Shown here: in pieces, positions 15,004-53,644 of the stretch
Numbering within the stretch: the first letter of the stretch is position 1
Layout of the letters: each line of letters opens with the position of its first letter
DNA from: Comamonadaceae bacterium CG12_big_fil_rev_8_21_14_0_65_59_15
GTDB taxonomy: Bacteria; Pseudomonadota; Gammaproteobacteria; Burkholderiales; Burkholderiaceae_C
Direction: 5' to 3'
Length of the DNA stretch: 64,000 nt
Assembly: GCA_002786915.1 (NCBI GenBank)
Contig: PCUV01000104.1
Coordinates: 8,934-72,933 of the forward strand
Made by a program: the position numbers and the translations under genes
Notes under the pieces: generated by a model
What the model was told of the DNA's origin: nothing
The model's database searches: none
The model's input: the letters and a program-made list of their open reading frames with translations, nothing else

Positions 15004-16178
15004 TCGAGCACCGCCGCGTAGACCAGGTTGCGAAACAGCATGCGGTAGTACTCGCGCTGGTTGGGTGCTTGCAGCATCAAAATGGCAAACAGGTCCAGTG
15101 CGGGGTCAACAAAAAACGTGGTGCCGGCCAGCCCGCCCCAAAAATACGTACCCACCGACCCCGGCACCGGCGCACCGCCCAACTGTTTGCGTACCGCAAA
15201 GCCCAGGCCAAAGCCGTGCCCCGGAGGCAGCAGTGCCCGCGTGCCCGCGCTGGCCACGGGAATGTCGCCCAAGTGGTCGCAGGTCATGAAGTCCACCATG
15301 CTCGGCCCCAGCAGACGCACGCCGTCCAACTCGCCCCGGTTCAGCATGAACTGCAAAAAGCGCGCGTAGTCCTGCGCGGTGGAAATCAGCCCGCCGCCGC
15401 CCGAGGCGAACGCCGCGTCGCTGCGCACGTCGATCACCTTCATCTGGATGCCGCCGTCGGGGTCTCGGGCAAAGGGCTCGGCCACGTGGTCGTGAAACTG
15501 CGCCGGCACGGTGAACCCGGTATGGGGCATACCCAGCGGCTCAAAGATATGTTCACGCAAAAAGTCTTGCAGACTCTGCCCCGACACGACCTCGACCACG
15601 CGCCCCAACACGTCGGTGGCGCGGCTGTATTCAAACGCGCTGCCGGGCTGGAACATCAAGGGCATGGCAGCCAGTTGCTGGGTGAACTCGGCCAGCGTGC
15701 GCTGGCGTGAGCCAATGCGCAGCTGCGTGTACTGGCGCTGCACCGGGCTGGCGCCCAGAAATTCATACGTCATGCCCGCCGTGTGGCGCATCAGGTCATG
15801 CACCGTGGCATCAACGTGCACCGGCTCCAAACCGTCGTTACCGGCCACCTGCTGCCCGGCAAATTCCGGCAGGTGCCGGCTGACCGCGTCGCTGAGCAGC
15901 AAACGCCCCTGCTCCACCAGCATCATCGCCGCCACCGAGACGATCGGCTTGGTCATGGAATAGATGCGAAAGCGCGCCTGCAGGTGCATCGCCTCACCGG
16001 TGGCCGGGTTGAGCTGGCCCACGCTGTTCAGCAGCGCAGTCTTGCCGTGGCGCGCTACCACCGCAACCGCGCCGGGCAAACGACGCTTGTCCACCTCCTG
16101 TTGCAGCACGTCCATCAGACGCTGCAGACGGGGCGTGTTCAAGCCGATTTTTTCAGGGGAAACGGATGCCAAAGTCAT
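15000..16178 (-). CDS. Serine hydrolase (beta-lactamase family)
   Basis: SMTK (SxxK), LMRHTAG, FEYS..TDVLG, GGGLISTAQDY, WGG.AGT. Confidence 0.92.
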   Translation of the reverse strand: MTLASVSPEKIGLNTPRLQRLMDVLQQEVDKRRLPGAVAVVARHGKTALLNSVGQLNPATGEAMHLQARFRIYSMTKPIVSVAAMMLVEQGRLLLSDAVSRHLPEFAGQQVAGNDGLEPVHVDATVHDLMRHTAGMTYEFLGASPVQRQYTQLRIGSRQRTLAEFTQQLAAMPLMFQPGSAFEYSRATDVLGRVVEVVSGQSLQDFLREHIFEPLGMPHTGFTVPAQFHDHVAEPFARDPDGGIQMKVIDVRSDAAFASGGGGLISTAQDYARFLQFMLNRGELDGVRLLGPSMVDFMTCDHLGDIPVASAGTRALLPPGHGFGLGFAVRKQLGGAPVPGSVGTYFWGGLAGTTFFVDPALDLFAILMLQAPNQREYYRMLFRNLVYAAVLD

Positions 16179-16238
16179 ATCATTTGTATAGCTGTCTGCG
16201 CTTATTTTATAAGCTCTGGAGGCCAAAAATACCACTAA
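16177..16238 (+). repeat. ~60-bp fixed-spacing motif, intergenic copy
   Basis: ATAGCT-N17-AAGCTCTGGAGGCCAAAAAT. Confidence 0.8.
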
Positions 16239-22184: not shown

Positions 22185-22200
22185 GAAACTGGAATCAATC

Positions 22201-22956
22201 ATGGCAGAGACTTCCCCCTCCCCCATCATCACGTTTGACAAAGTCAACAAGTGGTACGGCAACAACTTTCACGTGTTGCGCGACATTGACCTGAGCGTGG
22301 CCAAAGGCGAACGCATCGTCATTTGCGGCCCATCAGGCTCGGGCAAGTCCACGCTGATTCGCTGCATCAACCGTCTTGAAGAACACCAGCAAGGCCACCT
22401 GACCGTCGATGGCACTGAACTGACCGACGACGTCAAAGCGATTGACCGGGTGCGCAAAGAAGTGGGCATGGTGTTCCAACAGTTCAACCTTTTCCCGCAC
22501 CTGACGGTGCTGGAAAACCTGACGCTGTCGCCCATGTGGGTGGGCAAGATGCCCAAAAAAGAAGCCGAAGAAAAAGCCATGGCGCAGTTGCAGCGCGTGC
22601 GCATTGCCGAGCAGGCGGGCAAATACCCGCTGCAACTCTCCGGCGGCCAGCAGCAACGCGTGGCGATTGCACGCGCGTTGTGCCTCAAGCCAAAGATTAT
22701 GCTGTTTGACGAGCCCACCAGCGCGCTCGACCCCGAGATGATCAAGGAAGTGCTCGACGTAATGATTGCCATGGCCGACGAGGGCATCACCATGTTGTGC
22801 GTGACGCACGAAATGGGCTTTGCCAAAGCGGTGGCCGACCGCGTGATCTTTATGGACCAGGGTCAGATCGTCGAGCAAAACAACCCGCACGACTTCTTCA
22901 ACAACCCGCAGAGCGAGCGCAGCAAAGATTTTTTATCGAAGATTCTGGGGCATTGA
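22201..22956 (+). CDS. aapP: Amino acid ABC transporter ATP-binding protein
   Basis: [30 protein letters not shown]. Confidence 0.95.
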
Positions 22957-25261: not shown

Positions 25262-25921
25262 TTGGCTATGGCAAAAAAACTGAAAAAAGGCTACTTCGTG
25301 CGCGGTGAGTTTGTAGCAGAAGGCAGCGAACGCGACCTGGAGCTCAAGGCCGAACTCAAGGGCACCGACGAGGCAAGCCGCACCGACCTCAAACGCGAAA
25401 GCGACGCGCTGCAAAAGCTGGGCGAGGCCTTGCTGACCCTGCGCGGCGATTTGCTGGACAAGCTGGGCCTGTCCGACAAGCTGCTCGATGCCATTGCGGA
25501 TGCCAAGCGCATCACCAATTTTGAGGGCAAGCGCCGCCAGATGCAGTTCATCGGCAAGCTCATGCGCAAGCTCGAAGCTGAAGAAGTGGATGCGGTGCGC
25601 GCCGCGCTGGACGAGCAGGCCAACGGCTCGGCCGCCGAAAATCTGGCGCTGCACGAGGCGGAACTGTGGCGCGACCGGCTGATTGCCGAAGACGACGCAG
25701 CGGGTCTGTGGATTGCCCAGCATCCCCGCACCGACACGCAACAATTGCGCGCCCTGATCCGCCAAGCCCGCAAAGACGCCGTGCCCGAAAAGCCCGGTGC
25801 TGCCGTGCGCCACGGCCGCGCCTACCGCGACATTTTTCAGCTGGTGCGCAACGGCCTGAGCGACAGGCCGGAGCCGGACCTGCTACCGCCTTCTTTCAAC
25901 ATCAGTCACGAAGCATCATGA
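25262..25921 (+). CDS. yjgA: Ribosome biogenesis factor YjgA (DUF615)
   Basis: SRTDLKRE..ALQKLG, KRRQMQFIGKLMR, D.QQLRALIRQAR, RAYR.IFQ; divergent from pmbA. Confidence 0.92.
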   Translation: MAMAKKLKKGYFVRGEFVAEGSERDLELKAELKGTDEASRTDLKRESDALQKLGEALLTLRGDLLDKLGLSDKLLDAIADAKRITNFEGKRRQMQFIGKLMRKLEAEEVDAVRAALDEQANGSAAENLALHEAELWRDRLIAEDDAAGLWIAQHPRTDTQQLRALIRQARKDAVPEKPGAAVRHGRAYRDIFQLVRNGLSDRPEPDLLPPSFNISHEAS

Positions 25922-26520
25922 GCACGTCCAACCCCTACCCGCCCATCAAGATCGGCATCGTCTCGGTGAGCGACCGCGCCAGCGCCGGCATCTACGAAGA
26001 CAAAGGCCTACCCGCGCTGCAAGCGTGGCTGACACGTGCGCTCAAAAACCCGTTGCAGTTTGAACCGCGCCTGATTCCCGACGAGCAGGCCACCATTGAA
26101 GCCACGCTAATCGAGCTGGTGGATGCGGCGCACTGCGCGCTGGTGCTCACCACCGGCGGCACCGGCCCGGCCCTGCGCGACGTGACGCCTGAGGCCACGC
26201 TGGCGGTGGCGCACAAAGAGATGCCCGGTTTTGGTGAGCAGATGCGCCAGATCGGCCTGCGGTTTGTGCCCACCGCCATCCTGTCGCGCCAGGTGGCGGT
26301 GATCCGGGCGCAGAGCCTGATCATCAACCTGCCGGGTCAACCCAAGTCGATTGCCGAAACGCTGGAAGGACTGCGTGACGCCGATGGCAAGTCGGTGGTA
26401 CCCGGCATTTTTGCCGCCGTGCCGTATTGCATTGACTTGATTGGCGGGCCGTATCTGGAAGCCGATGAGGCGGTATGCAAGGCCTTCCGGCCCAAGGCAG
26501 CGGTACGGACTTATACATAA
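25918..26520 (+). CDS. mog: Molybdopterin adenylyltransferase
   Basis: VSDRASAG.YED, TTGGTGPA.RDVTPEAT, PTAILSRQ, NLPGQPKSI. Confidence 0.95.
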   Translation: MSTSNPYPPIKIGIVSVSDRASAGIYEDKGLPALQAWLTRALKNPLQFEPRLIPDEQATIEATLIELVDAAHCALVLTTGGTGPALRDVTPEATLAVAHKEMPGFGEQMRQIGLRFVPTAILSRQVAVIRAQSLIINLPGQPKSIAETLEGLRDADGKSVVPGIFAAVPYCIDLIGGPYLEADEAVCKAFRPKAAVRTYT

Positions 26521-26575
26521 GAAATATGCCTCTAGCCCTTATTGAATAAGGGCAAGCAGCTCTTATAAAGAGAGT
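26515..26575 (-). repeat. ~60-bp fixed-spacing motif at the mog stop
   Basis: Reverse strand AGAGCT-N17-AAGGGCTAGAGGCATATTT. Confidence 0.8.
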
Positions 26576-26621
26576 ATTTCTCTGCTTCTTACTGCGGTGA
26601 GTCGCTTCAAAATGAAGCTTG

Positions 26622-28392: not shown

Positions 28393-29163
28393 TCATGCGC
28401 CAGGCCCAGTGGCCTTGAGCATCATCTTGGCCACACCGCGCAGAATGTGGATTTCTTCCTGCGTGACCTGGGCACGGTTGAACAGCGCGTTCAGCCGCGG
28501 CATCAGTTTTTTGGGCGCCTGCGGGTCCAGAAAGCGGATATGCACCAGCGCCTGCTCCAGGTGCGCCAGCATCCCGGCCACCTGCGCTGCATCGGCCAGC
28601 ACGGCGTCACCGGTGGCCGCCTGCACCGGGTAGGCCGCCAGCGCGCAGCGCCAGTCGTAGGCAATCACCTGCACCGCGGCACCCAGGTTGAGCGAGCCAA
28701 ACTGCGGGTTGCTGGGAATGCTCAGACACACGTGGCAGCGATAGACGTCTTCGTTGCGCATGCCAAAGCGCTCGGAACCAAACAAAAACGCGATCCCGGA
28801 AATAGCAGAATTTTCGGCCTCCAGCTTTTGCCCGGAATGCAGCAATAGCTCTTTTTTCAGAAGCATTTCAAAGTGCTGGCGTGGTGTCGTGGTGGGTGGA
28901 CCGAAGTCGCGTGGCGTCATGGCCGTGGCGCACAGGTGCGTCATGCCGTGCAGCGCCTCGTCGAGCGTATCGACAATGCGAGCGTTTTTCAGCACGTCGG
29001 TGGCGCCGCTGGCGCGCTGGATGGTTTCTTCGCGGCGCAACACGTTGGGCCAGCGCGGTGCCACCAGCACCAGGTCGTCAAAACCCATGGTTTTCATGGC
29101 CCGCGCCACGGCCCCGACGTTGCCCGCCGAGCTGGTGTTGATCAGGATAAAGCGGGTCTGCAT
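28393..29163 (-). CDS. trmJ: tRNA (cytidine/uridine-2'-O)-methyltransferase TrmJ family
   Basis: [36 protein letters not shown]; internal repeat-encoded segment. Confidence 0.92.
28800..28867 (-). repeat. ~60-bp fixed-spacing motif, copy inside trmJ
   Basis: Reverse strand TGCTTC-N7-AGAGCT-N17-AAAAGCTGGAGGCCGAAAAT; encodes [20 protein letters not shown]. Confidence 0.75.
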
Positions 29164-30137: not shown

Positions 30138-30242
30138 CGCATCTTTTGTCGTCAGCTGCCAGCGTACGATGCCATCGGCGTCACCAACCTGCGCCACCAA
30201 CAAGCGCGCCATGTCGCCGCGCCTTTGATCAAGGGGAACATC

Positions 30243-31976
30243 ATGTCAGATCAGCCAGACCACACACCTAACCTGCAAAATCCGTTGGAAGCCGCCAGCA
30301 AAACGCTCAAACAAGCGTTCGATCCGTTTGGCATGGTGTCGTCGCAGATCAATGCGCAACTGGCCTGGCTGGCGCATCCGCGCGAATTCATGCGCGCCGC
30401 CGATGCCTTCACCTCCGACCTGATCAAACTCACCAGCCAGACCCTATTTCGCCCACTGGGCTTGAGCGAAGACGAAATCCACATCGACAACCCCGCCGAC
30501 GCACGCTTTGCCGACCCCGCCTGGTCGCAATCGGTACGCTGGGATTTGCTCAAGGACTGGTACCTGAGCATCACGCACCGGTTGCAAGACCTGATACTGG
30601 AAACGCCGGGGCTGTCGGAGCACGACCGCCATACCGCCGCGTTCTGGCAGCGTAATTGGCTCAACATGGTGGCCCCCACCAATTTTTTCTGGCTCAACCC
30701 GCAGGCCATGGATCGCTGTGCGCAGACGCGCGGTGCCAGCATCACGCGCGGCCTGCAAAATTTTGTGCGCGACGCGCAGGCGCAAAACATCCAGATGGTC
30801 GATGCCAGCGCCTTCAAGGTGGGCCAAAACCTGGGAACCACGGCGGGCAAGGTGATCTTTCGCAACGAGTTGGTGGAGCTGATTCACTACACGCCGACCA
30901 CCGCGCAAGTGCGGCAAACGCCGCTGCTGATCATCACGCCATGGATCAACAAGTTTTACATCCTGGACCTGACCGAAAAGAAAAGCCTGGTCAAGCACCT
31001 CACCGACCAGGGCTTTTCGGTGTTCATCGTCAGTTGGCGCAACCCGCCCGCCGAGATGCGCAACACCACCTTTGACGACTACCTGCTGCAAGGCGTGAAT
31101 GAGCTGGTGCGCGTGACCACCGCGTTCTGCAAGGTACCACAGGTGCATCTGGTGGGCTACTGCATTGGCGGCACGCTGGTCAGCAGCTACATGGCGTGGG
31201 CCAACAAACATTACCCGGCGAACAAGTTGCCGGTGGCGCAGTGGACGCTGCTGGCCACCCTGACCGATTTTTCGCACCCGGGCGAGATCAATATCTTCAT
31301 CGACGACAAAGCGCTCGACGAACTGGAAGACCTGATGGCCCGCAAAGGCTATCTGGACGGTTCTGAAATGGCCGCGTCGTTCCGCTTGCTGCGCTCCAAC
31401 AGCCTGATCTGGAACTACTGGGTGCACAGCTACCTGCTGGGTGAAGAACTGGTGCCGTTTGACGTGCTGTTCTGGAACGTGGACGCCACGCGCATGCCGC
31501 AGGCCATGCACTCGTACTACCTGCGCCAGATGTATCTGCACAATAACCTGATCCAGCCCGAAGCGCTGACGATCGGCGGCGAGCCCATTAGCCTGGGGCG
31601 CATCACGCAAGAGCTGTACGCGGTGACCGCTGAAGAAGACCACATTGCGCCCTGGACGTCTTGCTACCAGATTCGTAAAACAATCGCCCCCAAGACCAAG
31701 GTGCGCTTTGTGCGCTCGACCTCAGGGCATATCCTGGGCATCGTCAACCCGCCGGTGAACCCGCCCAAACGTTCCTATTGGGTGGGCGAGCCCAGCGCCA
31801 AAGACAGCGCACAAGACTGGCTGGAACACGCCGAAAAACACCCCGGCACCTGGTGGACCGACTGGATCAGCTGGCTCAACGAGCGCACCGGCCCGATGGT
31901 CAAGGCCTACCCGGCGTCCAACCGCCAGTTTCCGGCGCTGGCCGATGCGCCGGGCACGTACGTGATGGAAAAGTAA
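30243..31976 (+). CDS. phaC: Class I polyhydroxyalkanoate synthase
   Basis: PWINKFYILDL, GYCIGG lipase box, EEDHIAPW, SGHILG, WW.DW. Confidence 0.93.
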   Translation: MSDQPDHTPNLQNPLEAASKTLKQAFDPFGMVSSQINAQLAWLAHPREFMRAADAFTSDLIKLTSQTLFRPLGLSEDEIHIDNPADARFADPAWSQSVRWDLLKDWYLSITHRLQDLILETPGLSEHDRHTAAFWQRNWLNMVAPTNFFWLNPQAMDRCAQTRGASITRGLQNFVRDAQAQNIQMVDASAFKVGQNLGTTAGKVIFRNELVELIHYTPTTAQVRQTPLLIITPWINKFYILDLTEKKSLVKHLTDQGFSVFIVSWRNPPAEMRNTTFDDYLLQGVNELVRVTTAFCKVPQVHLVGYCIGGTLVSSYMAWANKHYPANKLPVAQWTLLATLTDFSHPGEINIFIDDKALDELEDLMARKGYLDGSEMAASFRLLRSNSLIWNYWVHSYLLGEELVPFDVLFWNVDATRMPQAMHSYYLRQMYLHNNLIQPEALTIGGEPISLGRITQELYAVTAEEDHIAPWTSCYQIRKTIAPKTKVRFVRSTSGHILGIVNPPVNPPKRSYWVGEPSAKDSAQDWLEHAEKHPGTWWTDWISWLNERTGPMVKAYPASNRQFPALADAPGTYVMEK

Positions 31977-31983
31977 CGCAAAG

Positions 31984-32045
31984 CCATCAACTTTGATAGC
32001 TGTTTGCGCTTATTTCGCAAGGGCTAGAGACTGTTTTAATGCTTA
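31984..32045 (+). repeat. ~60-bp fixed-spacing motif between convergent phaC and proQ
   Basis: ATAGCT-N17-AAGGGCTAGAGACTGTTTT. Confidence 0.8.
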
Positions 32046-32720
32046 TTTCAGGGCTGCCAGCGCGGCCCTGATTTCTTGCACATCGCGGCCCACCATGGCG
32101 GCAAAATCTTCTGGCGTTTTGCCACTGGCCTGATACGCCTGTAGCAGTGCGGCACGGCGAGCGCGCTGTTGATCCACCTGGTTGATGGCTTCATCCAGCA
32201 CCGCAGCCACTGCGGCATCAGGTGTACCCACGCGCGCCAAGTAATCGCCACGTGCCAGACCAGACTTGTCATACGCTTTCGTCAATTGCTGTTGCAGTTT
32301 GGGCAACAGGTCTTCCTGCGTGCGCGCCTGGCGGCGCGTGAACACCTCTACCAGCGACAAAAACACATGCTCTGCGGCGACCGGTTCCACTGGCTGGCCC
32401 TGCAGATCATGGCGCGGCAAACCTGACGCCACCGCTTGCAGGTAGCGCGTGGAACGGGTGTGCACGCCCAGCGCCAGCTTGAGCTCGTCGCGCTTGAAAG
32501 TGTCCGGGTGCGCGGCCATCAGCTCCTGAAAAACCCCGAGCTTGAGCGGCAAAAAATGCTGGCCAAAGAGTTTGGGATACAACTCAAACAGCTTTTCCAG
32601 CACCGGCTGTGCGCTGGCAAAGCGGCCTGCGCCCTTGGGCGCTTTGGCCTGATTGGCTGGATTGGCTGGGGGCGCTTCTTGCGGCGCAAGAACGGTGGAT
32701 GCAGAGACGGTGTCGCTCAT
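32043..32720 (-). CDS. proQ: ProQ/FinO family RNA chaperone
   Basis: PLKLGVFQEL, LKLALGVHTRSTRYL, RHDLQG.P. Confidence 0.88.
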   Translation of the reverse strand: MSDTVSASTVLAPQEAPPANPANQAKAPKGAGRFASAQPVLEKLFELYPKLFGQHFLPLKLGVFQELMAAHPDTFKRDELKLALGVHTRSTRYLQAVASGLPRHDLQGQPVEPVAAEHVFLSLVEVFTRRQARTQEDLLPKLQQQLTKAYDKSGLARGDYLARVGTPDAAVAAVLDEAINQVDQQRARRAALLQAYQASGKTPEDFAAMVGRDVQEIRAALAALK

Positions 32721-32818
32721 GGGTGTGCATTGACTTTTCAAGTAAAGCTGGCAATTGTCGGTCAAAGCGCCACTTCGCTGGCATACTTCGCCGCATGAAG
32801 CAGTTTCAGGCCCAAACC

Positions 32819-35491
32819 ATGAACGCCGCTGCGACGTTGCCTGACGCGCCTGCGCTGGCGCAGCAGGTAGCCGCCGTACAAGCCGCCCCCGGGCACTACG
32901 ATGAGTGGCACGGCCGGGTTGCGCAGGCAACGTCTGGGCAGTCTCAAAATGCTACATTTTCTGAAGCTGCCCAAGAAGATTTGACAAGTGCCTGGGCCGA
33001 TTTTTTTAGTCCACTGCAACATGAATCCAAGGTACAGCTGGCGCAGCGCAGCGCCCAGCTGGCGCGCCAGGTGCGCGACAACGGCATCACCTACAACGTG
33101 TATGCAGACCAGGACGGCCCGCAGCGCCCCTGGTCGCTGGACTTGTTCCCGCTGATTCTGGACAGTGCCGACTGGCAACACATAGAAGCCGGTGTTTTGC
33201 AGCGCGCGCGCTTGCTTGAGCACATCATGGCCGATATCTATGGTGCGCAAACGCTGCTTTCCAAGGGCTTGCTGCCGCCCGCACTGGTACAAGGGCATCC
33301 CGGGTATTTACGCGCCATGTGCGGTGCGCAGCCCGTGGGAGGGCGCTTTTTGCACATTGCCGCGTTCGATCTGGCGCGTGGGCCAGACGGCAACTGGTGG
33401 CTGGTAGGGCAGCGCACGCAGGCACCCTCGGGGTTGGGTTATCTGCTGGAAAACCGGCTCGCTATTTCAGCTCAGTTTGAAGCGGCATTTGAATCCATGA
33501 AAGTGCAGCGCCTGGCCAGCACGTACCGCACACTGATGGACAGCCTGCGCGCGCTCAGCCCGATGGGGCGCGGCGCACACCTGGCGCTACTGACGCCCGG
33601 CCCCTACAACGAAACTTATTTTGAGCACGCCTATCTGGCGCGCTACCTGGGCCTGACGCTGGTGGAAGGCAGTGATTTGCTGGTACGCGATGAGCATCTG
33701 TACCTGAAAACGCTCAAGGGCCTGGTGCCAGTGCACGGTTTGCTCAAACGGGTGGACGACCCGTACATGGATCCGTTGGAGCTGCGCGCGGACTCCACCT
33801 TGGGCGTACCGGGCTTGTTGCAGGCCATCCGCACCGGCCATGTGCTGGTGGCCAACGCGCCCGGCTCGGCTTTTCTGGAGTCGCCCGCCCTGCTGGGGTT
33901 TTTACCCGCCCTGGCGCGCCATTTGTTTGACCAGGAACTGTGCCTGCCAGCGCTGCCCACCTGGTGGTGCGGCGAGCGCAGCGCCATGCTCGAGGCGCTA
34001 ACCAAACTGCCGGAATGTGCCATCAAGCCCACTTACCCTGGCAGCGACAACCACAATACATTTGACGCGGTGCTGGGGGCGCGGCAAGACGCGCACACGC
34101 TGGACGAATGGGCTGGCCGCATGGTGCGCAACCCGCAAGACTACACCGTGCAAACATATATGCCCTACTCGCAACTGCCCGTGTGGCAAGAAGAGCGTGA
34201 CGGCGCGGGGGATGGCACGTTGCAGGCTCGCTCAGTGGTGTTGCGCGTGTTTGCCGTCTCTGACGGTGCGCAAGGATGGCGTGTGTTGCCAGGCGGGCTG
34301 GCACGCGTGGCCAGCGGGCTGGAAGACGTGACGTCGATGCAGCGCGGCGGCAGCAGTGTGGATGTATGGGCCATCACGCAAACCGAGATCGATCGCACCA
34401 CGCTGCTGCACCCGCACCTGACGCCCGAAAGCCTGATGCAACGCAAGCGCATGGTGACCAGTCGCGCCGCAGAAAACCTGTTTTGGCTCGGCCGCTACAC
34501 CGAGCGCACGGAAAACGCCCTGCGCCTGGCACGCCTGACGCTGGGTTGTTTGCACGGGGACATGCACGACACCGCCGAACTGAAAACGTGGCTGGGCCAA
34601 TTGGCTGTACTCAATACGTTGGTGTTGCCAAGCGTACCCACCCCCAACCAGGCACCGCATATCTTTGAGCGCGCCCTGATTGACAGCCTCACCGCCACCA
34701 ACCAGGCCACCAGCGTGGGCTACTGCCTGCGCGCGCTCAAGCTGGCGGCATCCAGCGTGCGTGAGCGCCTGTCGCTGGAACATTGGCGCATCATCACACG
34801 CACCGAAGAATCGCTGTTTGCCCGCTTCGCGCAATACCACCAGCAAGGCGACTGCACGGCCCAGAACGCGCTGCACATCCTCAAGGACATCAGCGACCAC
34901 ATGGCCGCCATCACCGGTGCCCAAACCGACCGCATGACGCGCGACGACGGTTGGCGGCTGCTGAGCATTGGCCGGCACATTGAGCGACTGGCGTTTCTGT
35001 CCACCGCCTTGAACCGGGCCATTGACTGCCAAAGCCTGCAAACTGACGCTGGCTTCGACGCTGCCATCGAGTTGTTTGACAACGCCATCACTTTTCATGC
35101 CCAGTTCCAGCAAAGCCGCGACATGGCCGCGCTGATTGATTTGCTGGTGCTGGACCGCGACAACCCACGCTCCATCTACTGGGTGGCCAAGACGCTGCGT
35201 GGTCGGCTGGCCAAACTGGCGGGGAGTGAACCGAATCAACTCAGCGAACTGTCGCTGCAAGTGCCCAACCCTGACGTGTGGAATCTGGCGCAATTGTGCG
35301 AGCGGGCTTACGATCTGATTGATCCGCTACCCTGCGACGGTGACGCGCCCAGCAAGCAGGCACCCGGCTATTTGCTGCTGCGCTCGCTGTTGCACGACTG
35401 TACCAACGCTGCGTATGCGGTGTCAGAGGCGGTCAGCGCCACTTATTTCACCCACGCTGGCATCACCAACCGGAGCGTGCGGGCATCATGA
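32819..35491 (+). CDS. Circularly permuted type 2 ATP-grasp protein fused to an alpha-E domain
   Basis: AFDLARG, RTQAPSGLGY.LENR, LTPGPYNETYFEHAYLARYLG, PGGLARVA, QRGGSS.DVW, FWLGRYTERTE, GRHIER; start may be 32795. Confidence 0.93.
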   Translation: MNAAATLPDAPALAQQVAAVQAAPGHYDEWHGRVAQATSGQSQNATFSEAAQEDLTSAWADFFSPLQHESKVQLAQRSAQLARQVRDNGITYNVYADQDGPQRPWSLDLFPLILDSADWQHIEAGVLQRARLLEHIMADIYGAQTLLSKGLLPPALVQGHPGYLRAMCGAQPVGGRFLHIAAFDLARGPDGNWWLVGQRTQAPSGLGYLLENRLAISAQFEAAFESMKVQRLASTYRTLMDSLRALSPMGRGAHLALLTPGPYNETYFEHAYLARYLGLTLVEGSDLLVRDEHLYLKTLKGLVPVHGLLKRVDDPYMDPLELRADSTLGVPGLLQAIRTGHVLVANAPGSAFLESPALLGFLPALARHLFDQELCLPALPTWWCGERSAMLEALTKLPECAIKPTYPGSDNHNTFDAVLGARQDAHTLDEWAGRMVRNPQDYTVQTYMPYSQLPVWQEERDGAGDGTLQARSVVLRVFAVSDGAQGWRVLPGGLARVASGLEDVTSMQRGGSSVDVWAITQTEIDRTTLLHPHLTPESLMQRKRMVTSRAAENLFWLGRYTERTENALRLARLTLGCLHGDMHDTAELKTWLGQLAVLNTLVLPSVPTPNQAPHIFERALIDSLTATNQATSVGYCLRALKLAASSVRERLSLEHWRIITRTEESLFARFAQYHQQGDCTAQNALHILKDISDHMAAITGAQTDRMTRDDGWRLLSIGRHIERLAFLSTALNRAIDCQSLQTDAGFDAAIELFDNAITFHAQFQQSRDMAALIDLLVLDRDNPRSIYWVAKTLRGRLAKLAGSEPNQLSELSLQVPNPDVWNLAQLCERAYDLIDPLPCDGDAPSKQAPGYLLLRSLLHDCTNAAYAVSEAVSATYFTHAGITNRSVRAS
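32950..33007 (+). repeat. ~60-bp fixed-spacing motif, degenerate copy inside the ATP-grasp gene
   Basis: TGCTAC-N7-GAAGCT-N17-AAGTGCCTGGGCCGATTT (1 nt shorter than consensus). Confidence 0.55.
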
Positions 35492-36402
35492 AGCTGGCTG
35501 TCACGCACGAAACCACATACGACTACCCGTCGTCGGTTGAAGCGGCACAGCACCTGGTGTACCTGACACCGCGCCGCACCGACGCGCAGCAGTTGCTGGC
35601 GCACCGGCTTGATATTTACCCGCGCCCAGAGCAAATCCACAGCTCGGTAGATGTGTTTGGTAACACACGCAGTTTTTTTGCGCTGCACCTACCGCACCGG
35701 CAACTGCGCGTAGTGGGCATCAGTGAGGTTGTGACCAGCGCCAGCACGCTGCCTGAGAACCCAGTCATCTGGGAACAGGCGCGTGAGCATTTTCGCTACC
35801 AGGCAGGTGCCGCTTTTGACCCGGCCTGCGAATTTACCTTTGCCTCACCCATGGCGCCGGTGCACGCAGAATTTGCCGCTTACGCGCGCGCCAGCTTTGC
35901 GCCGGGTCACCGTCTGTTGTTGTGCGCGCTGGACCTGATGCATCGCATCTATGACGACTTTAGCTACGAAAGCGCCAGCACAGAAGTCAGTACCCCCGCA
36001 CTTCAGGCACTGCACCAGCGTCAAGGTGTGTGCCAGGATTTTGCGCATATTTTTGTCGCCTGCTTGCGATCGATGGGCCTGGCGGCACGCTACGTGAGTG
36101 GCTACTTGCTGACGCAACCGGCCCCGGGAACGATCAAACTGCGCGGCAGCGACGCGTCCCACGCGTGGGGCGCGGTGTACTTACCCGTGCTGCCCGGCAA
36201 CACCACGCAGCCCAATGCCACAGCGTGCTGGGTGGACATGGACCCCACCAATGACCGCGCAGGCTGGCAGTCGCCGGGCGCAGACTACGTGACCTTGGCT
36301 GTAGGGCGCGATTTTTCAGACGTGTCTCCGATGCGCGGCGTCATCCACGGCGGTGCCAGCCATACCCTGCGCGTTGGGGTGACGGTGGAGCCCGTGGCAT
36401 GA
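35488..36402 (+). CDS. Transglutaminase-like protein
   Basis: GVCQDFAH, AARYVSGYL, ASHAW, DPTN, GRDFSDVSP.RG. Confidence 0.93.
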   Translation: MKLAVTHETTYDYPSSVEAAQHLVYLTPRRTDAQQLLAHRLDIYPRPEQIHSSVDVFGNTRSFFALHLPHRQLRVVGISEVVTSASTLPENPVIWEQAREHFRYQAGAAFDPACEFTFASPMAPVHAEFAAYARASFAPGHRLLLCALDLMHRIYDDFSYESASTEVSTPALQALHQRQGVCQDFAHIFVACLRSMGLAARYVSGYLLTQPAPGTIKLRGSDASHAWGAVYLPVLPGNTTQPNATACWVDMDPTNDRAGWQSPGADYVTLAVGRDFSDVSPMRGVIHGGASHTLRVGVTVEPVA

Positions 36403-36535: not shown

Positions 36536-36606
36536 AACTATGATTTGAAATTGATAGCTTATCAAGCTTATCTGATAGGGGCCAGACGCACTTTTATCCC
36601 GTAAAA
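36536..36606 (+). repeat. ~60-bp fixed-spacing motif at the 3' end of the PfkB kinase gene
   Basis: ATAGCT-N17-AGGGGCCAGACGCACTTTT. Confidence 0.65.
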
Positions 36607-37589
36607 GCAAGGCCACCCCGGGCCACGTACGCACGCACCTCGGCACGCGTTGGCGGCACACAGCCGCGCTGCATCACGCACAGGCTGGCACTGGCAATGG
36701 CGCTGCCTAGCAAGTCATGCGCCACCGGGGTGGCAACCGCCATGGCACCCCAGTCTGGCGGCAGATCATGCGCCAACATGGCCGTCACCAGTCCGGCCAG
36801 AAAGCAGTCACCCGCACCTACGGTGTCCAGCACAGTCAGGGGCTGGGTTTCGTGGGCCGCAAAGGTTTGACCAAACCGTGTCAGCAAGGCCGCCCCGTCG
36901 CCACCGCGCGTGAGCGCCAGCACACTGGCGCGGCTGGTTTTCAGCAACTGCCTGGCCTGGGCCATGGCATCGGCACCGGGCAGCGCTAGGCAAGCCAGGT
37001 CTTCATCGCTGGCCTTGATCACATCAGCGTATTGCAGGGCGGTGAGCACATGCCGGCGGTACAGGTCCAGGTTGGGCATGACTGAGGGCCGCAGGTTGGC
37101 ATCAATCACCACCGTGCGCCCGGCCTGGCGTTGCGCCGCAAGCCAGGGCAAATAGGTTAGCGCGTCGTCCGGCGACAAGGCCAGCGCACCGGTGCAGACC
37201 AGCTGCAATCCCTCGGCCGTGCTGCAAGCCTGCGTCAGCTCGTCAGCGCTGGTGGCACGGTCGGCCACGCCCTCGCGGTAAAACGCGTAATCGGGGTGGC
37301 CGTGGCCATCCACATTTACCACCGCCAGCGATGTCACGGGGAGCACCGGCTCCGGCACGGCCAGGTGTACACCGTCTTGCACCATTTGCGCGGCCAGTTG
37401 CCTGCCCAGCCGGTCTTTCGACAGCGGGTTGAGGTAGAGCGTTTCAATACCCTGTCGCGCCAAGGCCCGCGTCAGGTTGTAAACCGCACCGCCCAGACAG
37501 GGCTCAAACCGACCATCCGGGCCAGCGATCAGGTCGATCAGGGCCTCACCAGCGGTGGCCACTTGTATCATGGTATTTTTTTGCATCAT
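36594..37589 (-). CDS. PfkB family carbohydrate kinase (probable fructokinase)
   Basis: GEALIDL, GGA.YN, DANLRP, DTVGAGDCF; divergent from frc operon; start uncertain. Confidence 0.88.
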   Translation of the reverse strand: MMQKNTMIQVATAGEALIDLIAGPDGRFEPCLGGAVYNLTRALARQGIETLYLNPLSKDRLGRQLAAQMVQDGVHLAVPEPVLPVTSLAVVNVDGHGHPDYAFYREGVADRATSADELTQACSTAEGLQLVCTGALALSPDDALTYLPWLAAQRQAGRTVVIDANLRPSVMPNLDLYRRHVLTALQYADVIKASDEDLACLALPGADAMAQARQLLKTSRASVLALTRGGDGAALLTRFGQTFAAHETQPLTVLDTVGAGDCFLAGLVTAMLAHDLPPDWGAMAVATPVAHDLLGSAIASASLCVMQRGCVPPTRAEVRAYVARGGLAFTG

Positions 37590-37755
37590 CTCAGGGTTTT
37601 CCATAACTAAAACAACTTGATTTATTAACTATTCTGCCACTATAGTTCAGCCACGCTGATCCGGCAAGCGGCATTTCCCGAAGAAGTGCGTCGTTGGACA
37701 GCGCTGCACCCAACCACCAACCCGCCGCAAGGCTTGAAACACACGAGGACACCGC

Positions 37756-44816: not shown

Positions 44817-45071
44817 ATGAACACTTGGCCGGTTCAGGATGCCAAAGCCCGGTTCAGCGAGTTTTTGCAAGCGTGCCTGGCTAGCGGGCCGCAGCTGGTC
44901 ACCAAGCGTGGGCAAGAAGCCGCTGTGCTGGTGCCTGTCGGTCAATGGCGGCAGTTGCAAGCCAACAGCCGACCATCGCTCAAACAGGTGTTACTGGACG
45001 CGGCAGCGCGAGCTGACTTGCCCATTCCACCACGCGGCACCTCCCCGCGCCGTGCCGCACCGAAGTTGTGA
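44817..45071 (+). CDS. Phd/YefM family antitoxin
   Basis: WPVQDAKARFSE, GPQLVTKRG.EAAVLV. Confidence 0.92.
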   Translation: MNTWPVQDAKARFSEFLQACLASGPQLVTKRGQEAAVLVPVGQWRQLQANSRPSLKQVLLDAAARADLPIPPRGTSPRRAAPKL

Positions 45072-45551
45072 TGTTTTTGCTGGACACCAACGTGGTTTCC
45101 GAGCTGCGCAAGACCAGGCCACACGGCGCGGTGCTGGCCTGGCTGACCGCCACGCCCGAGTCTGACCTGTTCATCTCGGCCGTAACTTTGGGTGAAATTC
45201 AGCGCGGCATTGAACTCACCCGCGACCAAAACCCAGCCAAGGCGCTTGAACTGTCCCATTGGGCTGACCTCAAGGCACATGCTTTGTGGTCAGTATGCTG
45301 CACCAGCCAAGGCGCTTGAACTGTCCCATTGGGCTGACCAGCTCGCCACCACGACCAACCTGCTGCCCATGGACGCCGCCGCTTTTCGCGCCTGCGCGCG
45401 CCTGATGCACCACCAGTCAGGCGCATTGTTTGAAGATGCCATGATTGCCGCCACCGCCCAAGTGCATCAACTCACCGTGGTGACGCGCAACACGCGCGAC
45501 TTTGCCGGGTTTGGCGTGCCGTTGTTTAACCCTTTCAGCCAACCTGTTTAA
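45068..45551 (+). pseudogene. vapC: VapC PIN toxin frameshifted by a 70-bp insertion
   Basis: FLLDTNVVSEL...EIQRGIE in one frame, EDAMIAATA..VVTRNTRDF in another; removing 70 bp joins them. Confidence 0.9.
45233..45339 (+). repeat. Perfect 37-bp direct repeat flanking 33 bp of unrelated DNA
   Basis: CCAGCCAAGGCGCTTGAACTGTCCCATTGGGCTGACC at 45233-45269 and 45303-45339. Confidence 0.95.
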
Positions 45552-45561
45552 ATTGCTTTCT

Positions 45562-47649
45562 GTGAACATTTCCCCGCCAAATCCCCCTCCCCGCCGACCG
45601 ATCCGCGAACTGCCCGACGCGCTGATCAGCCAGATCGCCGCTGGCGAGGTAGTGGAGCGCCCGGCCTCGGTGGTGCGTGAGCTGCTGGACAACGCACTCG
45701 ATGCCGGGGCCACGCAGGTCACCGTGCGGCTGCTGGCCGGTGGTGTGCGCCTGATCAGTGTGGAAGACAACGGCTGCGGCATCTTGCCCGACGAGTTACC
45801 CATCGCCCTCAAACGCCACGCCACGAGCAAGATTGGCAGCCTCTCTGACCTGGAGTCGGTGGCCACCATGGGCTTTCGGGGGGAGGCCCTGGCTGCTATC
45901 AACTCCATTGCTGACTGTGCATTGCTGTCAAGGGCTGAAGGCAAAAATCATGCTTACCTTTTGGAGGGGCAAACGGGCGAATTGAAACCGGTGGCGCGCA
46001 GCACAGGCACCACGGTCGAGGTCAAAGAGCTGTTTTTTGCCACCCCCGCGCGGCGCAAGTTCCTCAAGACCGATGCCACCGAACAGGCACACTGTGTGGA
46101 GGCCGTTCGCCGCCACGCGCTGGCCCGGCCCGACGTAGGCTTTGCCATCTGGGCCGACGGCAAGCTCATTGAGCAATGGCGCCGCTGCGGCGATGCAGGC
46201 AGCCTGCCCGCGCTGGAGCAGCGCCTGGCCGACGTGCTGGGCAGCGACTTTGTCGAGCGCGCGGTGTGGGTTGACTTCAGCAACCAAAGCGCCGCATTGA
46301 CGGGCAGCTTGCAGCCTGCCATCAAGGTCTGGGGCCGCGCTGGCATTCCAGATGCCGCACGCTCCAGAGCTGACCAGCAGTTTTGCTATGTGAACGGCCG
46401 TTTTGTGCGCGACAAGGTCATCACCCACGCCGCCCGCAGCGCCTACGAAGACGTGTTGCACGGCCAGCGCCAGCCGGTGTACGTGCTCTATGTTGAGATC
46501 GACCCCACGCGCGTGGACGTGAACGTGCACCCAACCAAGATCGAGGTGCGGTTCAGGGACAGCCGTGAGGTGCATCAGGCGGTGCGCCATGCGGTCGAAT
46601 CCGCGCTGGCCACACCGCGCGCCGGAACGGCTGCGGCTGTGCCGTTGCTGACGGGATGGCCGCACCCAGCCCCACTGGGCGCAGGCAACCCCAATGCTGC
46701 AAGCGCCCATGGTGACCCGTTTAGCCGGGCAGACGCGAGCGCAGGCAGCGCTACAGCTTCTGATTTTTATAAGCAAAATAAGCCTCTAGCGCCTGTGCAG
46801 TATGCACAAGCAGCTATGCACTTTGAAGCACCTCCGGGCCATCGCGTGAGCGACCTGGGTGCGCTGTGGGGGCCATCCAGCGCACCGCACCCTGCCCGAG
46901 TGGCCGAAGATACCGCACCGCTTACACCCGACGAGTCGGACAAGATGAACCCGGTTTTTCTCCCTCCCCCACAGGGGGAAGGAGCCATCCATCCACAGCA
47001 CCTGGATTCTTCAAACGCTTTCACCACCCCCCCAAACGACTGGCCGCTCGGCCGCGCCCTGGCGCAGCTGATGGGGGTGTACATCCTGGCCGAAAACGCG
47101 CAGGGGTTGGTGATTGTCGATATGCACGCCGCGCACGAACGCATCGTTTATGAACGCCTGAAAGCGCAGTGGGACGCGGTGCAAACCAGCGCCGCGTCCG
47201 CGCAGGCCGCCCTGTCCAGCCAGCCGCTGCTGATTCCCGCCACCTTTGCCGCCACACCGCTGGAAGTGGCCACCGCCGAGGCCAGCGCAGACACCTTGCA
47301 CGCGCTGGGGCTGGACATCACGCCGTTTTCTGACAAAACGCTGGCGGTGCGCGCCGTGCCGACCACGCTGGCACAAGGCGACGCAGTGGAGCTGGCGCGC
47401 AGCGTGCTGGCCGAGCTGGCACAACACGATGCCAGCACGGTGCTGGCGCGCGCCCACAATGAGCTGCTGAGCAGCATGGCCTGCCACGGCGCGGTGCGTG
47501 CCAACCGCCGCCTCACCCTGGAAGAAATGAACGCGCTATTGCGCCAGATGGAAGCCACCGAACGCAGCGACCAGTGCAACCATGGCCGCCCCACCTGGCG
47601 CCAACTCAGCCTGCGTGAGCTGGATGCGCTGTTTCTACGCGGGCGCTGA
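45562..47649 (+). CDS. mutL: DNA mismatch repair endonuclease MutL
   Basis: SQIAAGEVVERPASVVRELLDN, MGFRGEAL, DVNVHPTK.EVRF, DMHAAHER, MACH, CNHGRPTW; GTG start inferred. Confidence 0.97.
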   Translation: MNISPPNPPPRRPIRELPDALISQIAAGEVVERPASVVRELLDNALDAGATQVTVRLLAGGVRLISVEDNGCGILPDELPIALKRHATSKIGSLSDLESVATMGFRGEALAAINSIADCALLSRAEGKNHAYLLEGQTGELKPVARSTGTTVEVKELFFATPARRKFLKTDATEQAHCVEAVRRHALARPDVGFAIWADGKLIEQWRRCGDAGSLPALEQRLADVLGSDFVERAVWVDFSNQSAALTGSLQPAIKVWGRAGIPDAARSRADQQFCYVNGRFVRDKVITHAARSAYEDVLHGQRQPVYVLYVEIDPTRVDVNVHPTKIEVRFRDSREVHQAVRHAVESALATPRAGTAAAVPLLTGWPHPAPLGAGNPNAASAHGDPFSRADASAGSATASDFYKQNKPLAPVQYAQAAMHFEAPPGHRVSDLGALWGPSSAPHPARVAEDTAPLTPDESDKMNPVFLPPPQGEGAIHPQHLDSSNAFTTPPNDWPLGRALAQLMGVYILAENAQGLVIVDMHAAHERIVYERLKAQWDAVQTSAASAQAALSSQPLLIPATFAATPLEVATAEASADTLHALGLDITPFSDKTLAVRAVPTTLAQGDAVELARSVLAELAQHDASTVLARAHNELLSSMACHGAVRANRRLTLEEMNALLRQMEATERSDQCNHGRPTWRQLSLRELDALFLRGR
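45894..45956 (+). repeat. ~60-bp fixed-spacing motif inside the MutL ATPase domain
   Basis: TGCTAT-N7-ATTGCT-N17-AAGGGCTGAAGGCAAAAAT. Confidence 0.7.
46765..46830 (-). repeat. ~60-bp fixed-spacing motif in the MutL linker
   Basis: Reverse strand TGCTTC-N7-ATAGCT-N17-AGGCGCTAGAGGCTTATTTT. Confidence 0.85.
46960..46985. repeat. C/G-rich REP half-element in the MutL linker
   Basis: CTCCCTCCCCCACAGGGGGAAGGAGC resembles the elements at 16290-16409. Confidence 0.7.
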
Positions 47650-50421: not shown

Positions 50422-50638
50422 AACCCGCACGGCAACTGGTTTTGGCGGCCTCCTCATACGGGGGTACCCGAAATCGTCGGCCGCCAAAACCAGCCACCGC
50501 GCTGGACAGCGACGCAAAAGTGACTTGATGCAATAGCGGCTAGCCGGATGGGCACCACAGGTGAGCGCCGATTTCGGGTACCCCCGTATGAGGCACTCGC
50601 CTGTGGGGCCCGTCCGGCGGGTTGTGCGACAACGCTTG
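50422..50638 (+). repeat. 217-bp structured dispersed repeat, copy 2
   Basis: Colinear with 7336-7552. Confidence 0.85.
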
Positions 50639-52125: not shown

Positions 52126-52703
52126 ATGCGTCTCCTGTGACTTGTCTTGACCTGGTCTGCGGCCGCCGTCCAGTGCCAGTGGTCGGCCACAAAAACTTCC
52201 ATCACCAGCAACACCGCCTGTCGGCGCACAAACGCCGAGCGGCGTGCAGACAGCGCCCGTGCGGTCAGGGTCTGGCCAGTGGCACGCTGCCAGCTTGCCG
52301 CCACATGGCGTTTCAAGGTACTGCCTGGCCCCAGCTTGGCAAACGCCAGCGGCGCGCGCGTGATGCCACCGCGCTTGAACAGCACATCGGCCAGCGGACG
52401 CGTGCCCAAACCACGCACCGAGCGCCATGCGGCCAATGAATCGGTATGCGCCGTCACGCTGCGCGCAAACACGCGCGGCACACCATCGACACGCAACACC
52501 ACCTCACGCACATAGCCCTTGCGTTGGCGGCCCTGACCCAGCACTCGCGCCTCATCCGCGCTCAGCGCCTGGTGTCCCTGCGCCAGCACCTGCACCGAAA
52601 ACTGTGTGCCCGTGGCGGCCAGGCGCGCGCTGAGCGACCCCGGCGCCTGCAACCAGCGGTGCAGCCCGCCACGACCGAAATTGCGACGCACCCACTGAAT
52701 CAT
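52122..52703 (-). CDS. ubiC: Chorismate-pyruvate lyase
   Basis: WL..PGSLSARL, REVVL, VFARSV, GTRPLA.VLF, ARRS.F, LVMEVF. Confidence 0.88.
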   Translation of the reverse strand: MIQWVRRNFGRGGLHRWLQAPGSLSARLAATGTQFSVQVLAQGHQALSADEARVLGQGRQRKGYVREVVLRVDGVPRVFARSVTAHTDSLAAWRSVRGLGTRPLADVLFKRGGITRAPLAFAKLGPGSTLKRHVAASWQRATGQTLTARALSARRSAFVRRQAVLLVMEVFVADHWHWTAAADQVKTSHRRRI

Positions 52704-53644
52704 CGGTGCGCCCTGACCGAAGCCACGATGCCCGCGGTAAACAAGGCTGCTGCCAGCCACTGCGCGGGCAGCGGCCACTGGCCGTCCCAGACAAAGGCAT
52801 AGAACAACGAAAACAGCGTTTCGCTCACGATCAGTTGCCCGCACAAACTCGGGCTCAGGTGGCGGCTGGCGGTGTTCCACAGCACGCTGGCGGCCCATCC
52901 GGCACCCAGTCCAGTTACTACGCAAACCGTAGCTATCAACGCTTTATTATCAAGCGCTAGAAGCTGATTTGGCTCTGAACCCGCAAGCAGCCACAAGAGC
53001 AGCGCACCACATCCGGTGGCCACGCCCAGCCAGTTGGCCCAAGCCAGCGCGCTAACTTTGGGGTGGCGCTTGAGCCAGGCGGCGTTGAGCAAGGCAAACG
53101 CGGTCCAGCTCACCATGGCTCCCAACGCCAACAACACACCCCACCAAAAACTCTGACCGGCCTGTGGCAGCGCTGCGGCTTGGGTCAGCGCCACCTGCAT
53201 CATCAGCACCAATCCGGCTCCCGTCAGCACCAAGCACGGCCAGAGCGCAGACCACTTCAGCCCCGCAGGTTTGCCCAACAGCATGACCCAGATTGGAATC
53301 GTGCCAATGATCAGTGTGGGCACCTCCACGCCACAGGCCAACACCGACAGCGCCAGCAGCAGGTAATAGCCGGTAGCACCCAGCGTGCTGAAAGCCACGG
53401 CGGTCGCCGCCTGGCGCGGCGTGGGCCAGGTGCGGCTGCGGCGCTGCAGCAGCATCACCAGCGTGGCAATCAGACCAAAGCTGACAAAGCGCGCGGCGGT
53501 CACATCCACCGCAGTGAGCCCCACCGTCATGCGCGGCACCACAAACACCATGCCCCACAAGGCACCCGCACCCAGACCTGCGGCAATACCGATCCAGGAC
53601 AAGGGTGCGCGGCCTGCGCCTGCGTCAAACGCCAAAACCGTCAT
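52700..53644 (-). CDS. DMT/EamA family transporter
   Basis: About 10 TM segments; GALWG..FVVP, LWN.AS..L, GQLIVSETLF. Confidence 0.85.
   Translation of the reverse strand: MTVLAFDAGAGRAPLSWIGIAAGLGAGALWGMVFVVPRMTVGLTAVDVTAARFVSFGLIATLVMLLQRRSRTWPTPRQAATAVAFSTLGATGYYLLLALSVLACGVEVPTLIIGTIPIWVMLLGKPAGLKWSALWPCLVLTGAGLVLMMQVALTQAAALPQAGQSFWWGVLLALGAMVSWTAFALLNAAWLKRHPKVSALAWANWLGVATGCGALLLWLLAGSEPNQLLALDNKALIATVCVVTGLGAGWAASVLWNTASRHLSPSLCGQLIVSETLFSLFYAFVWDGQWPLPAQWLAAALFTAGIVASVRAHR
52916..52979 (+). repeat. ~60-bp fixed-spacing motif inside the DMT gene (antisense)
   Basis: TACTAC-N7-GTAGCT-N17-AAGCGCTAGAAGCTGATTT. Confidence 0.8.

Follow-up and report, generated by a model that had tools for sequence, protein, structure and literature searches.

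A dispersed ~60-nt repeat overlies codons of the conserved genes mutL and selO in register in Comamonadaceae

How can a dispersed DNA repeat lie within the ATPase domain of MutL and leave the length of the protein unchanged? The question is raised by a 64,000-nt stretch of contig PCUV01000104.1 (GenBank assembly GCA_002786915.1, positions 8,934 to 72,933 of the forward strand) from Comamonadaceae bacterium CG12_big_fil_rev_8_21_14_0_65_59_15, referred to here as the window. The window has a GC content of ~60% and originates from an uncultured groundwater/aquifer population; all 24 of the 24 runs returned are metagenomes, and none is classed as RNA. A first-pass annotation, made from the nucleotides alone, had proposed that a recurring motif overlies core sequence of MutL, SelO and ETF-QO in unusual AT-rich codons with no extra peptide, implying either selection on the DNA that reshapes codons or replacement rather than insertion, and that the copy in trmJ is a true in-frame insertion. 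Comparison of the window genes with retrieved metagenome loci and proteins (labelled L### and P####) bears this out for mutL and selO, not for ETF-QO: the motif belongs to a repeat family that lies over the codons of these two genes without adding to them, and its nucleotides are under constraint or being homogenised.

In mutL, positions 45894-45956 encode AAINSIADCALLSRAEGKNH, directly after the GHKL motif MGFRGEAL. The GC content at third codon positions (GC3) is 0.38 in this segment versus 0.74 in the whole gene, and the patch contains the rare codons ATA, AGG and TTA. Among 75 usable orthologues aligned from GFRGEAL to TPARRKF, no gap falls across the motif in any of the 75, nor is there one relative to E. 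coli MutL. The peptides at the site are homologous (AAINSIADCALLSRAEG versus AAINSIADMSLLSRSQD in Polaromonas and AAIASVSEMALLSRTAE in Diaphorobacter); the motif-encoded IADCAxLSR aligns residue for residue with the ancestral IADMSLLSR and VSEMALLSR, and the amino-acid sequence of the patch remains typical of Comamonadaceae. The closest orthologues of the window gene belong to Rhodoferax metagenome-assembled genomes (69-73% identity), and its true start probably lies downstream of the ORF (open reading frame) start at 45502.

This segment is one of ten copies in the window (~1 per 6 kb) of a dispersed Comamonadaceae repeat family of ~60-65 nt. A repeat search first revealed that four intergenic sites share the core ATAGCTG..GCGCTT..AAGGGCTAGAG. 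When used as an nhmmer profile, these four copies matched selO (E 3.3e-9), the linker region of mutL on the minus strand (E 8.4e-8), the mutL N-terminal site (E 1.7e-4), a fifth intergenic site and trmJ, and iterating the search returned exactly nine copies, with a gap in score from 32 bits to below 9 bits. A position weight matrix (PWM) derived from 11 copies of other genomes recovers all nine at 27-56 bits, against a maximum of 15.4 bits in 20 block-shuffles of the window, and adds a weak tenth copy in rlhA. With this PWM, the mutL N-terminal copy scores 38.0 bits; a profile of seven copies from outside mutL finds it at E 5.2e-6. Six of the ten copies lie inside ORFs backed by Pfam or PDB matches, and the other four are intergenic. 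The family consensus, from a gap-free alignment of 20 mostly independent copies over 85 columns, is TGCTATnAAnTnnATAGCTGCTTGCGCTTnnTnnnCAAGnGCTAGAGGCnGATTTGA; at ~0.48 GC the motif is AT-richer than the 60% GC genome, and its copies are single, not tandem. The family is dense in Rhodoferax-like genomes: a Rhodoferax antarcticus locus (L164) holds five copies in 20.8 kb, as against only ~7 independent copies in 1.76 Mb of loci from other Burkholderiales. A literature search returned no published description of this repeat family, which does not prove that none exists.

Six of the mutL orthologues carry the N-terminal motif (that of the window, L001, L002, L033, L052 and L019). Their DNA reads ATA GCT GAY TGC GCA ATM TTA TCR AGG GCT AGC GGC where motif-less genes have ATY GCC GAC ATG AGC CTG ..., and the changes are mostly synonymous or conservative. 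At the site, GC3 is 0.33-0.52 in the six, versus 0.61-0.79 per gene, and motif-less orthologues use GC-rich codons there (GC3 0.71-1.0; the exceptions are L048 with 0.48 and L004 with 0.57). When scored with a PWM built without any mutL N-terminal copy, the six orthologues reach +27 to +45 and the others -18 to -68, with in-between values for L048 (+1.6) and L007 (-15.5). The scores are bimodal, the others being at background, and the change therefore looks like one discrete jump. The motif-bearing genes group in one Rhodoferax-like part of the neighbour-joining tree; L001 agrees with ~39 of the 49 specified consensus positions, and L005, L007 and L048 look like decayed members.

The family is read by its host genes in more than one way. 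The mutL N-terminal copy, rlhA and a signal-peptide copy described below use reading frame a (ATA GCT GCT TGC), and selO and trmJ use frame b (GAG CTN CTT GCG CTT); mutL and selO thus have nucleotides in common, not peptides. Stop codons are avoided in the frame-b copies, in which the TAG of the element appears as GAG (17 of 17 selO orthologues and trmJ). Sense frame b and the antisense reading yield peptides of the same type, ELLALEDKAL in selO and QLLALDNKAL in an EamA-family transporter gene, because the core has dyad symmetry.

The selO copy extends the argument to a second conserved enzyme, examined in 80 orthologues from metagenomes with 60-76% identity. There are no extra residues at the motif relative to P. 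syringae or E. coli SelO, and the window protein is 3 aa shorter. Among the retrieved orthologues the motif site is free of indels except in two that lack an in-register motif, L145 and L160, where a few residues are added. A profile built without the selO copy matches the same site in at least 20 orthologues (best E 8.5e-8), and with a PWM from 18 non-selO copies 58 of the 80 exceed the highest score among 6,129 null positions. Most major clades of the selO tree include high-scoring members, the correlation of score with GC3 is weak (rho -0.22), and the motif is kept in selO genes with a GC3 of 0.93-0.95. A role for selO as the founder of the family was rejected because the flank-encoded ADLML is found mainly in motif-bearing orthologues, most motif-less ones having RAMLQ or ARMLR. 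In three different genomes (L087:975-1025, L098:661-713 and L152:242-289) the motif also overlies, at the same position and in frame a, the apparent signal peptide of a gene neighbouring selO, with the sequences MKFAIKQIAACALFACATGVFA and MKFAIKQIAACALFACATGVFAQ.

Whether the motif is held at the nucleotide level can be read from synonymous sites. Raw codon identity is uninformative (0.566 vs 0.55), because codon bias inflates the baseline. The test used instead takes positions at which two orthologues have the same amino acid and one of them an unpreferred A/T-ending codon, and counts how often the other has the same codon. For the 17 motif-bearing selO taxa, the value is 0.719 in the motif versus 0.294 elsewhere, and none of 410 sliding windows is as high (maximum 0.418). 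Repeating the test on all 80 unselected orthologues removes ascertainment bias, and the result is 0.603 versus 0.266, again with 0 of 410 windows as high (maximum 0.421); the AT content at third positions peaks at the motif (0.389, median 0.178). The effect is weaker at the mutL N-terminal copy, where motif-bearing sets give 0.53-0.57 versus 0.35 elsewhere, and the highest synonymous conservation of the whole mutL gene lies over the linker copy (windows of 0.72-0.76). Nominally silent positions are thus unusually constant between species, so that a force must act on the DNA itself in addition to the protein. The earlier proposal of overlay or replacement rather than insertion, coupled to constraint on the DNA, had named indels at the motif and synonymous sites no more conserved than their flanks as what would speak against it; no indel is found at the mutL motif or at the selO motif in register, and the selO motif stands above its flanks. 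The proposal holds, and one-step replacement and gradual reshaping of codons both fit it.

Coding copies beyond those first listed, both antisense to their host genes, occur in the mutL linker and in the EamA gene, and they behave like the sense overlays of mutL and selO. At least 16 further Comamonadaceae orthologues score 18-41 bits at the linker site, with motif-bearing genes labelled Rhodoferax, Polaromonas, Simplicispira, Diaphorobacter and Acidovorax, and the copy overlies the conserved peptide (W/Y)(A/S)Q(A/P)A(I/M)xF. In the otherwise hypervariable linker of Comamonadaceae MutL (L003, L004, L014, L025, L031 and others), this conserved peptide, its first part encoded by the antisense strand of the repeat, is followed by GHRVSDLxALW. 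The peptide appears to resemble the QxxΦxF clamp-binding motif. In the EamA gene, GC3 is 0.35 over the copy versus 0.75-0.9 in the remaining gene, and 120 of 120 orthologues have equal length at the site, with LLALDNKAL-like peptides.

The trmJ copy behaves differently, as the first-pass annotation had held. Nearly all of 120 close orthologues contain a LLKKELLAQSEQGLEAE-type sequence, three motif-less ones (P0099, P0104 and P0115; 240 aa) are 12 aa (36 nt) shorter, and the window protein exceeds TrmJ of Bordetella, E. coli and P. aeruginosa by 11-16 aa. From these length comparisons, the trmJ copy amounts to a net gain of 12 aa by insertion, less than the length of the element itself. Three metagenomic TrmJ sequences (P0002, P0004 and P0084) have local tandem duplications spanning the motif-encoded segment, which hints at instability or assembly problems around the repeat. 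In rlhA, GC3 dips over the degraded copy, and motif-type RlhA orthologues are 3-4 aa longer than a second group, as judged from protein lengths. The copy proposed in ETF-QO (55534-55593) did not withstand the search: nhmmer with --max gave no match up to E 50, and the best PWM score of -2.8 is within noise.

Table 1. Repeat copies in the window and the genes discussed with them (coordinates are those of the window).
Feature	Position	Strand	Remarks
mutL	45502..47649	+	maximal ORF; Pfam HATPase_c_3, DNA_mis_repair, MutL_C; PDB MutL E 1e-90
Repeat copy in mutL N-terminal ATPase domain	45894..45953	+	sense, frame a (ATT GCT GAC TGT GCA ...)
Repeat copy in mutL linker	46771..46830	-	antisense; encodes ...KPLAPVQYAQAAMHFE... 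(...YAQAAMHFE...); E ~8e-8
selO (protein adenylyltransferase SelO)	673..2154	+	Pfam SelO E 1.8e-135
Repeat copy inside selO	1895..1954	+	sense, frame b; TAG of ATAGCT = GAG; E 3.3e-9; PWM 56 bits
Repeat copy in EamA/DMT transporter gene (52700..53644, -)	52916..52975	+	antisense; encodes SEPNQLLALDNKALIATVCVV; PWM 54.6 bits
Repeat copy in trmJ-like SpoU methyltransferase gene (28393..29163, -)	28806..28865	-	sense, frame b; PWM 28.5 bits
Weak/degraded repeat copy in rlhA (U32 peptidase family, 7628..9667, +)	9070..9129	+	frame a; PWM 22.8 bits; GC3 dip to 0.35
Intergenic copy	16175..16234	+	adjoins start of beta-lactamase-family gene on - strand; PWM 32 bits
Intergenic copy	26517..26576	-	directly after stop codon of MoCF_biosynth-domain gene (25666..26520, +)
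Intergenic copy	31983..32042	+	between convergent ORFs 30225..31976 (+) and 32043..32930 (-); PWM 43.5 bits
Intergenic copy	36541..36600	+	between convergent ORFs 35488..36402 (+) and 36594..37604 (-); PWM 27 bits

The four intergenic copies were likewise absent from the first list. One of them has a counterpart in R. antarcticus: the L164 copy at 12803-12850 lies beside a MoCF_biosynth gene, as does the window copy at 26517-26576, suggesting that orthologous positions are retained by intergenic copies as well. Other L164 copies lie at 10313-10360, 11632-11682 and 18802-18852.

The best explanation of these observations, held tentatively and with slightly less than even confidence, is that the motif replaced resident codons in register, probably through ectopic conversion anchored on homology, and that selection or drive has since maintained its nucleotides. 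In mutL, the course of events would start from the exchange seen in the alignment, in which the motif occupies exactly the codons used by motif-less orthologues for the strand after GFRGEAL, at the same length. The bimodal presence of the motif, confined to one Rhodoferax-like clade, fits a discrete event of some age, with later decay in part of the clade. Another copy of the repeat could have been the donor, through ectopic gene conversion over a short patch or through a template switch, with pre-existing similarity as the anchor: the ancestral GCCATCAACTCGATTGCCG shares 14 of 16 specified positions with the left arm, and at the right end ATGC matches. Only in-frame, equal-length, stop-free and function-compatible products would survive. 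Once in place, the motif is held by a force acting on nucleotides, as seen in the rare A/T-ending codons that stay fixed across family-level divergence, even at a GC3 above 0.9; this force may be selection for some function of the DNA, for instance as an extended, weakly dyad-symmetric site for a binding protein, or else a conversion- or uptake-type drive.

Several points weigh against this explanation. No donor copy or conversion tract boundary was identified, and dispersed homeologous sequences of ~60 nt would be expected to undergo conversion only rarely. In mutL, the codon of the conserved Asp (GAY) differs from the family consensus (GCT), so that the donor would need that variant or the tract would have to be patchy. 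Taxon sampling is sparse, the closest mutL orthologue being 73% identical in the best aligned segment. The synonymous signal at the mutL N-terminal copy is moderate: an unselected nine-taxon clade gives 0.436 versus a mean of 0.31, with 60 of 594 windows at or above that value, and the Fisher p-values for the motif-bearing mutL sets ignore phylogenetic non-independence. Finally, selO scores form a continuum from +58 to below 0, which gradual build-up or decay fits as well as a single event.

The same continuum speaks for the main rival, a drive alone, an account that we regard as unlikely: the motif would have been built up gradually by point mutations under a sequence-specific, DNA uptake-like drive, with no insertion or replacement event, as better-matching variants were preferentially taken up, recombined or converted wherever the protein tolerates them. 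Such a drive would accommodate overlays that keep length, use two reading frames and both orientations, recur at orthologous sites across genera and place six of ten copies in coding DNA; it would also suit a motif that persists against strong GC3 pressure and a family whose identity lies in its primary sequence and not in a hairpin. A precedent is given by uptake sequences located in coding DNA (PMC2817400). At the mutL N-terminal site, however, scores leap by more than 60 bits, and intermediates are almost lacking. Uptake sequence cores measure 9-12 nt and occur roughly once per kb, whereas the motif has ~60 nt of high information content at ~1 per 6 kb, and to our knowledge no sequence-biased uptake has been described in Comamonadaceae.

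Selection might alternatively act on the transcript, through a processing or binding site or sense-antisense pairing, and so fix synonymous sites in the mRNA. This would explain the synonymous conservation inside genes, and the intergenic copies, which lie just after stop codons or between convergent genes, would be transcribed. The consensus does contain a weak dyad, CTTGCGCTT-N6/7-AAGCGCTAG, with imperfect arms of ~13 nt (78.6% of cells paired in the central 11 pairs). On the other side, RNAalifold assigns 0 pairs to the 20 copies; three hand-proposed helices show no covariation and no compensatory changes beyond shuffles (73.2% paired vs 72.8%; 68.2% vs 69.2%); and for 10 of 11 copies folding is no more stable than that of shuffled sequence (z -1.5 to +1.2), unlike a stable hairpin of the repetitive extragenic palindromic (REP) type. 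The only copy with a clearly stable hairpin is that at 26517-26576 (DNA folding z-score -3.65). Rfam 15 gives no match at the gathering threshold in the whole window and only sub-threshold chance matches around two copies, no promoter-like or terminator-like site was found at the mutL copies, and inspection of the consensus by eye revealed no convincing match to sigma-70, sigma-54 or IHF (integration host factor) sites. With no consensus structure, covariation or general hairpin, the family is therefore defined by its primary sequence, and structured RNA was rejected as its defining feature. Copies also lie both sense and antisense to their host genes. An RNA-level element is quite improbable.

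A history in which a small mobile element, of the type of Rickettsia palindromic elements (RPEs) or intragenic REPs, was inserted in frame and a compensating deletion then restored the length is very improbable. Repair genes are home to many of the known intragenic REPs and RPEs (PMC3733652), and there is a net insertion in trmJ and possibly in rlhA. For at least two genes (mutL at its N-terminal site, and selO), however, an exact compensating deletion that recreates the homologous peptide would be needed, and the same probably applies to EamA and the mutL linker; in mutL, the residues IADCAxLSR line up with the ancestral peptide. Nor do 20 copies with their flanks show the traits of a miniature inverted-repeat transposable element: apart from the internal dyad they have no inverted repeats at their ends, and their flanks show no target-site duplication.

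Chance resemblance, with the patch being a conserved rare-codon cluster (e.g., for translational pausing) or a piece from an AT-richer donor, could appeal to its AT-richness and rare codons and to the known phenomenon of position-specific conservation of rare codons, but it is barely credible and for practical purposes refuted by the profile statistics, as the copy is recovered by profiles built without it (E 5e-6) and scores 38 bits where shuffles reach at most 15, L001 matches most of the specified consensus, mutL and selO are alike in nucleotides rather than peptides, non-coding copies exist, and the amino acids of the patch stay typical of Comamonadaceae.

Replacement followed by maintenance remains the preferred explanation. 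A wider conjecture, speculative and on balance doubtful, is that Comamonadaceae have a sequence-specific system of writing and maintenance that installs a long DNA signal in conserved coding sequence, in register. Biased uptake, biased gene conversion or a protein binding an extended ~60-bp site could each provide the route. If true, this system would keep its signal in the MutL ATPase core, SelO, the MutL linker and a transporter against codon-usage pressure over family-level time, and the signal would be either a third kind of genome signal resembling uptake sequences, much longer than the uptake signal sequences and DNA uptake sequences (USS/DUS), or a new class of genome-wide protein-binding site that dictates codons and some residues of housekeeping enzymes. 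If the findings as a whole hold, housekeeping genes of an entire bacterial family carry a second, non-protein layer of ~60-nt information that overrides codon usage and determines some amino acids. The family offers a natural system for studying how dispersed repeats enter coding DNA harmlessly, by replacement and not insertion, and what maintains motifs there, be it DNA-binding selection or molecular drive: the mutL N-terminal copy supplies a before-and-after pair, and the selO and mutL-linker copies supply deep conservation. The motif itself is ready bait for its putative binding or processing factor. In practice, motif patches will mislead scans of codon usage, of dN/dS (the ratio of nonsynonymous to synonymous substitution rates), of horizontal transfer and of recombination in Comamonadaceae.

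Several other features of the window were recorded. Just upstream of mutL, an exact 37-nt direct duplication (45233-45269 and 45303-45339, 70 nt apart) splits what appears to be a single PIN/VapC-like toxin gene into overlapping ORFs, 45068..45319 and 45192..45551. Both ORFs contain PAKALELSHWAD, and an antitoxin-like small ORF is present at 44817..45071; the duplication is either a frameshifting tandem duplication or an assembly artefact. Elsewhere, three direct repeats of ~27 nt (ATTTGCTCTGTCCCCAACTGATTAGAA-like, with spacings of 26 and 57 nt) occupy 22078-22187, in an AT-richer stretch just upstream of ORF 22201..22956, and could be an operator or iteron-like array.

Among known systems, REP/REPIN families are similar in being short dispersed repeats with dyad symmetry, present in many copies per genome, some of them intragenic. 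Intragenic REPs with GTAG or CGTC tags lie inside ORFs of functional proteins, including DNA-repair genes, and are described as insertions of 20-30 aa (Di Nocera et al., 2013, PMC3733652). In the present family, (G/A)TAG directly precedes the dyad, as ATAG-CTGCTTGCGCTT ... AAGCGCTAG; at alignment columns 26-29, most copies have ATAG, a few have GTAG (the window copy at 52916, L091 and L098), and the frame-b coding copies have GAG. Unlike REPs, the family adds no residue to mutL or selO, most of its copies lack a stable stem-loop, six of ten are intragenic, it is relatively AT-rich in a 60% GC genome, and its copies are kept at orthologous sites across a bacterial family. A separate repeat family is represented at 5804-5865, where a spacerless inverted repeat, its 31-nt arms 94% complementary (CGTCATTCCCGCGCAGGCGGGAATCTAGTGC followed by GCGCTGGATTCCCGCCTGCGCGGGAATGACG), looks like a head-to-head dimer of a CGTC-tagged REP-type stem-loop.

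RPEs, as far as the account of Ogata et al. (2000) is relayed in a later paper (PMC3733652), lie in frame in genes of functional, conserved proteins, and share with the present family an in-frame repeat whose encoded peptide is tolerated by the protein. They add tens of residues, whereas here codons are replaced one for one, trmJ with its 12 additional residues being the exception. The beta-proteobacterial repeat element (BRE) is another Comamonadaceae repeat, ~90 bp long, 69% GC and often tandem, found in Rhodoferax and Polaromonas (Hot et al., 2011, PMC3110155), with some copies reported to lie entirely within coding sequences. Assignment of the motif to BRE was rejected, since the motif is ~60 nt long, AT-richer and single, as opposed to a GC-rich, tandem unit of ~90 bp. 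The window also contains two GC-rich modules of ~215 nt, 91% identical to each other (7336-7552 and 50422-50638), each made up of two hairpin-forming units of ~95-100 nt (e.g., arms 7457-7492 and 7497-7532); these are better candidates than the motif and may correspond to BRE, to which they are likened by description only.

USS/DUS of Pasteurellaceae and Neisseriaceae, finally, overlie coding DNA at tolerant positions without changing its length, and those in coding regions correlate with preferred codons (Findlay and Redfield, 2009, PMC2817400). The likeness is extensive: both are overlaid without length change in several frames and both orientations, occur at orthologous sites in related species, shape the local peptide and the choice of codons, and are kept by a force other than protein function. 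The present motif differs in being ~60 nt long at a far lower density and in forcing unpreferred A/T-ending codons on its hosts. The family thus joins the length and dispersal of REP-like repeats with the overlay of uptake sequences, and is conserved at orthologous sites across a bacterial family.

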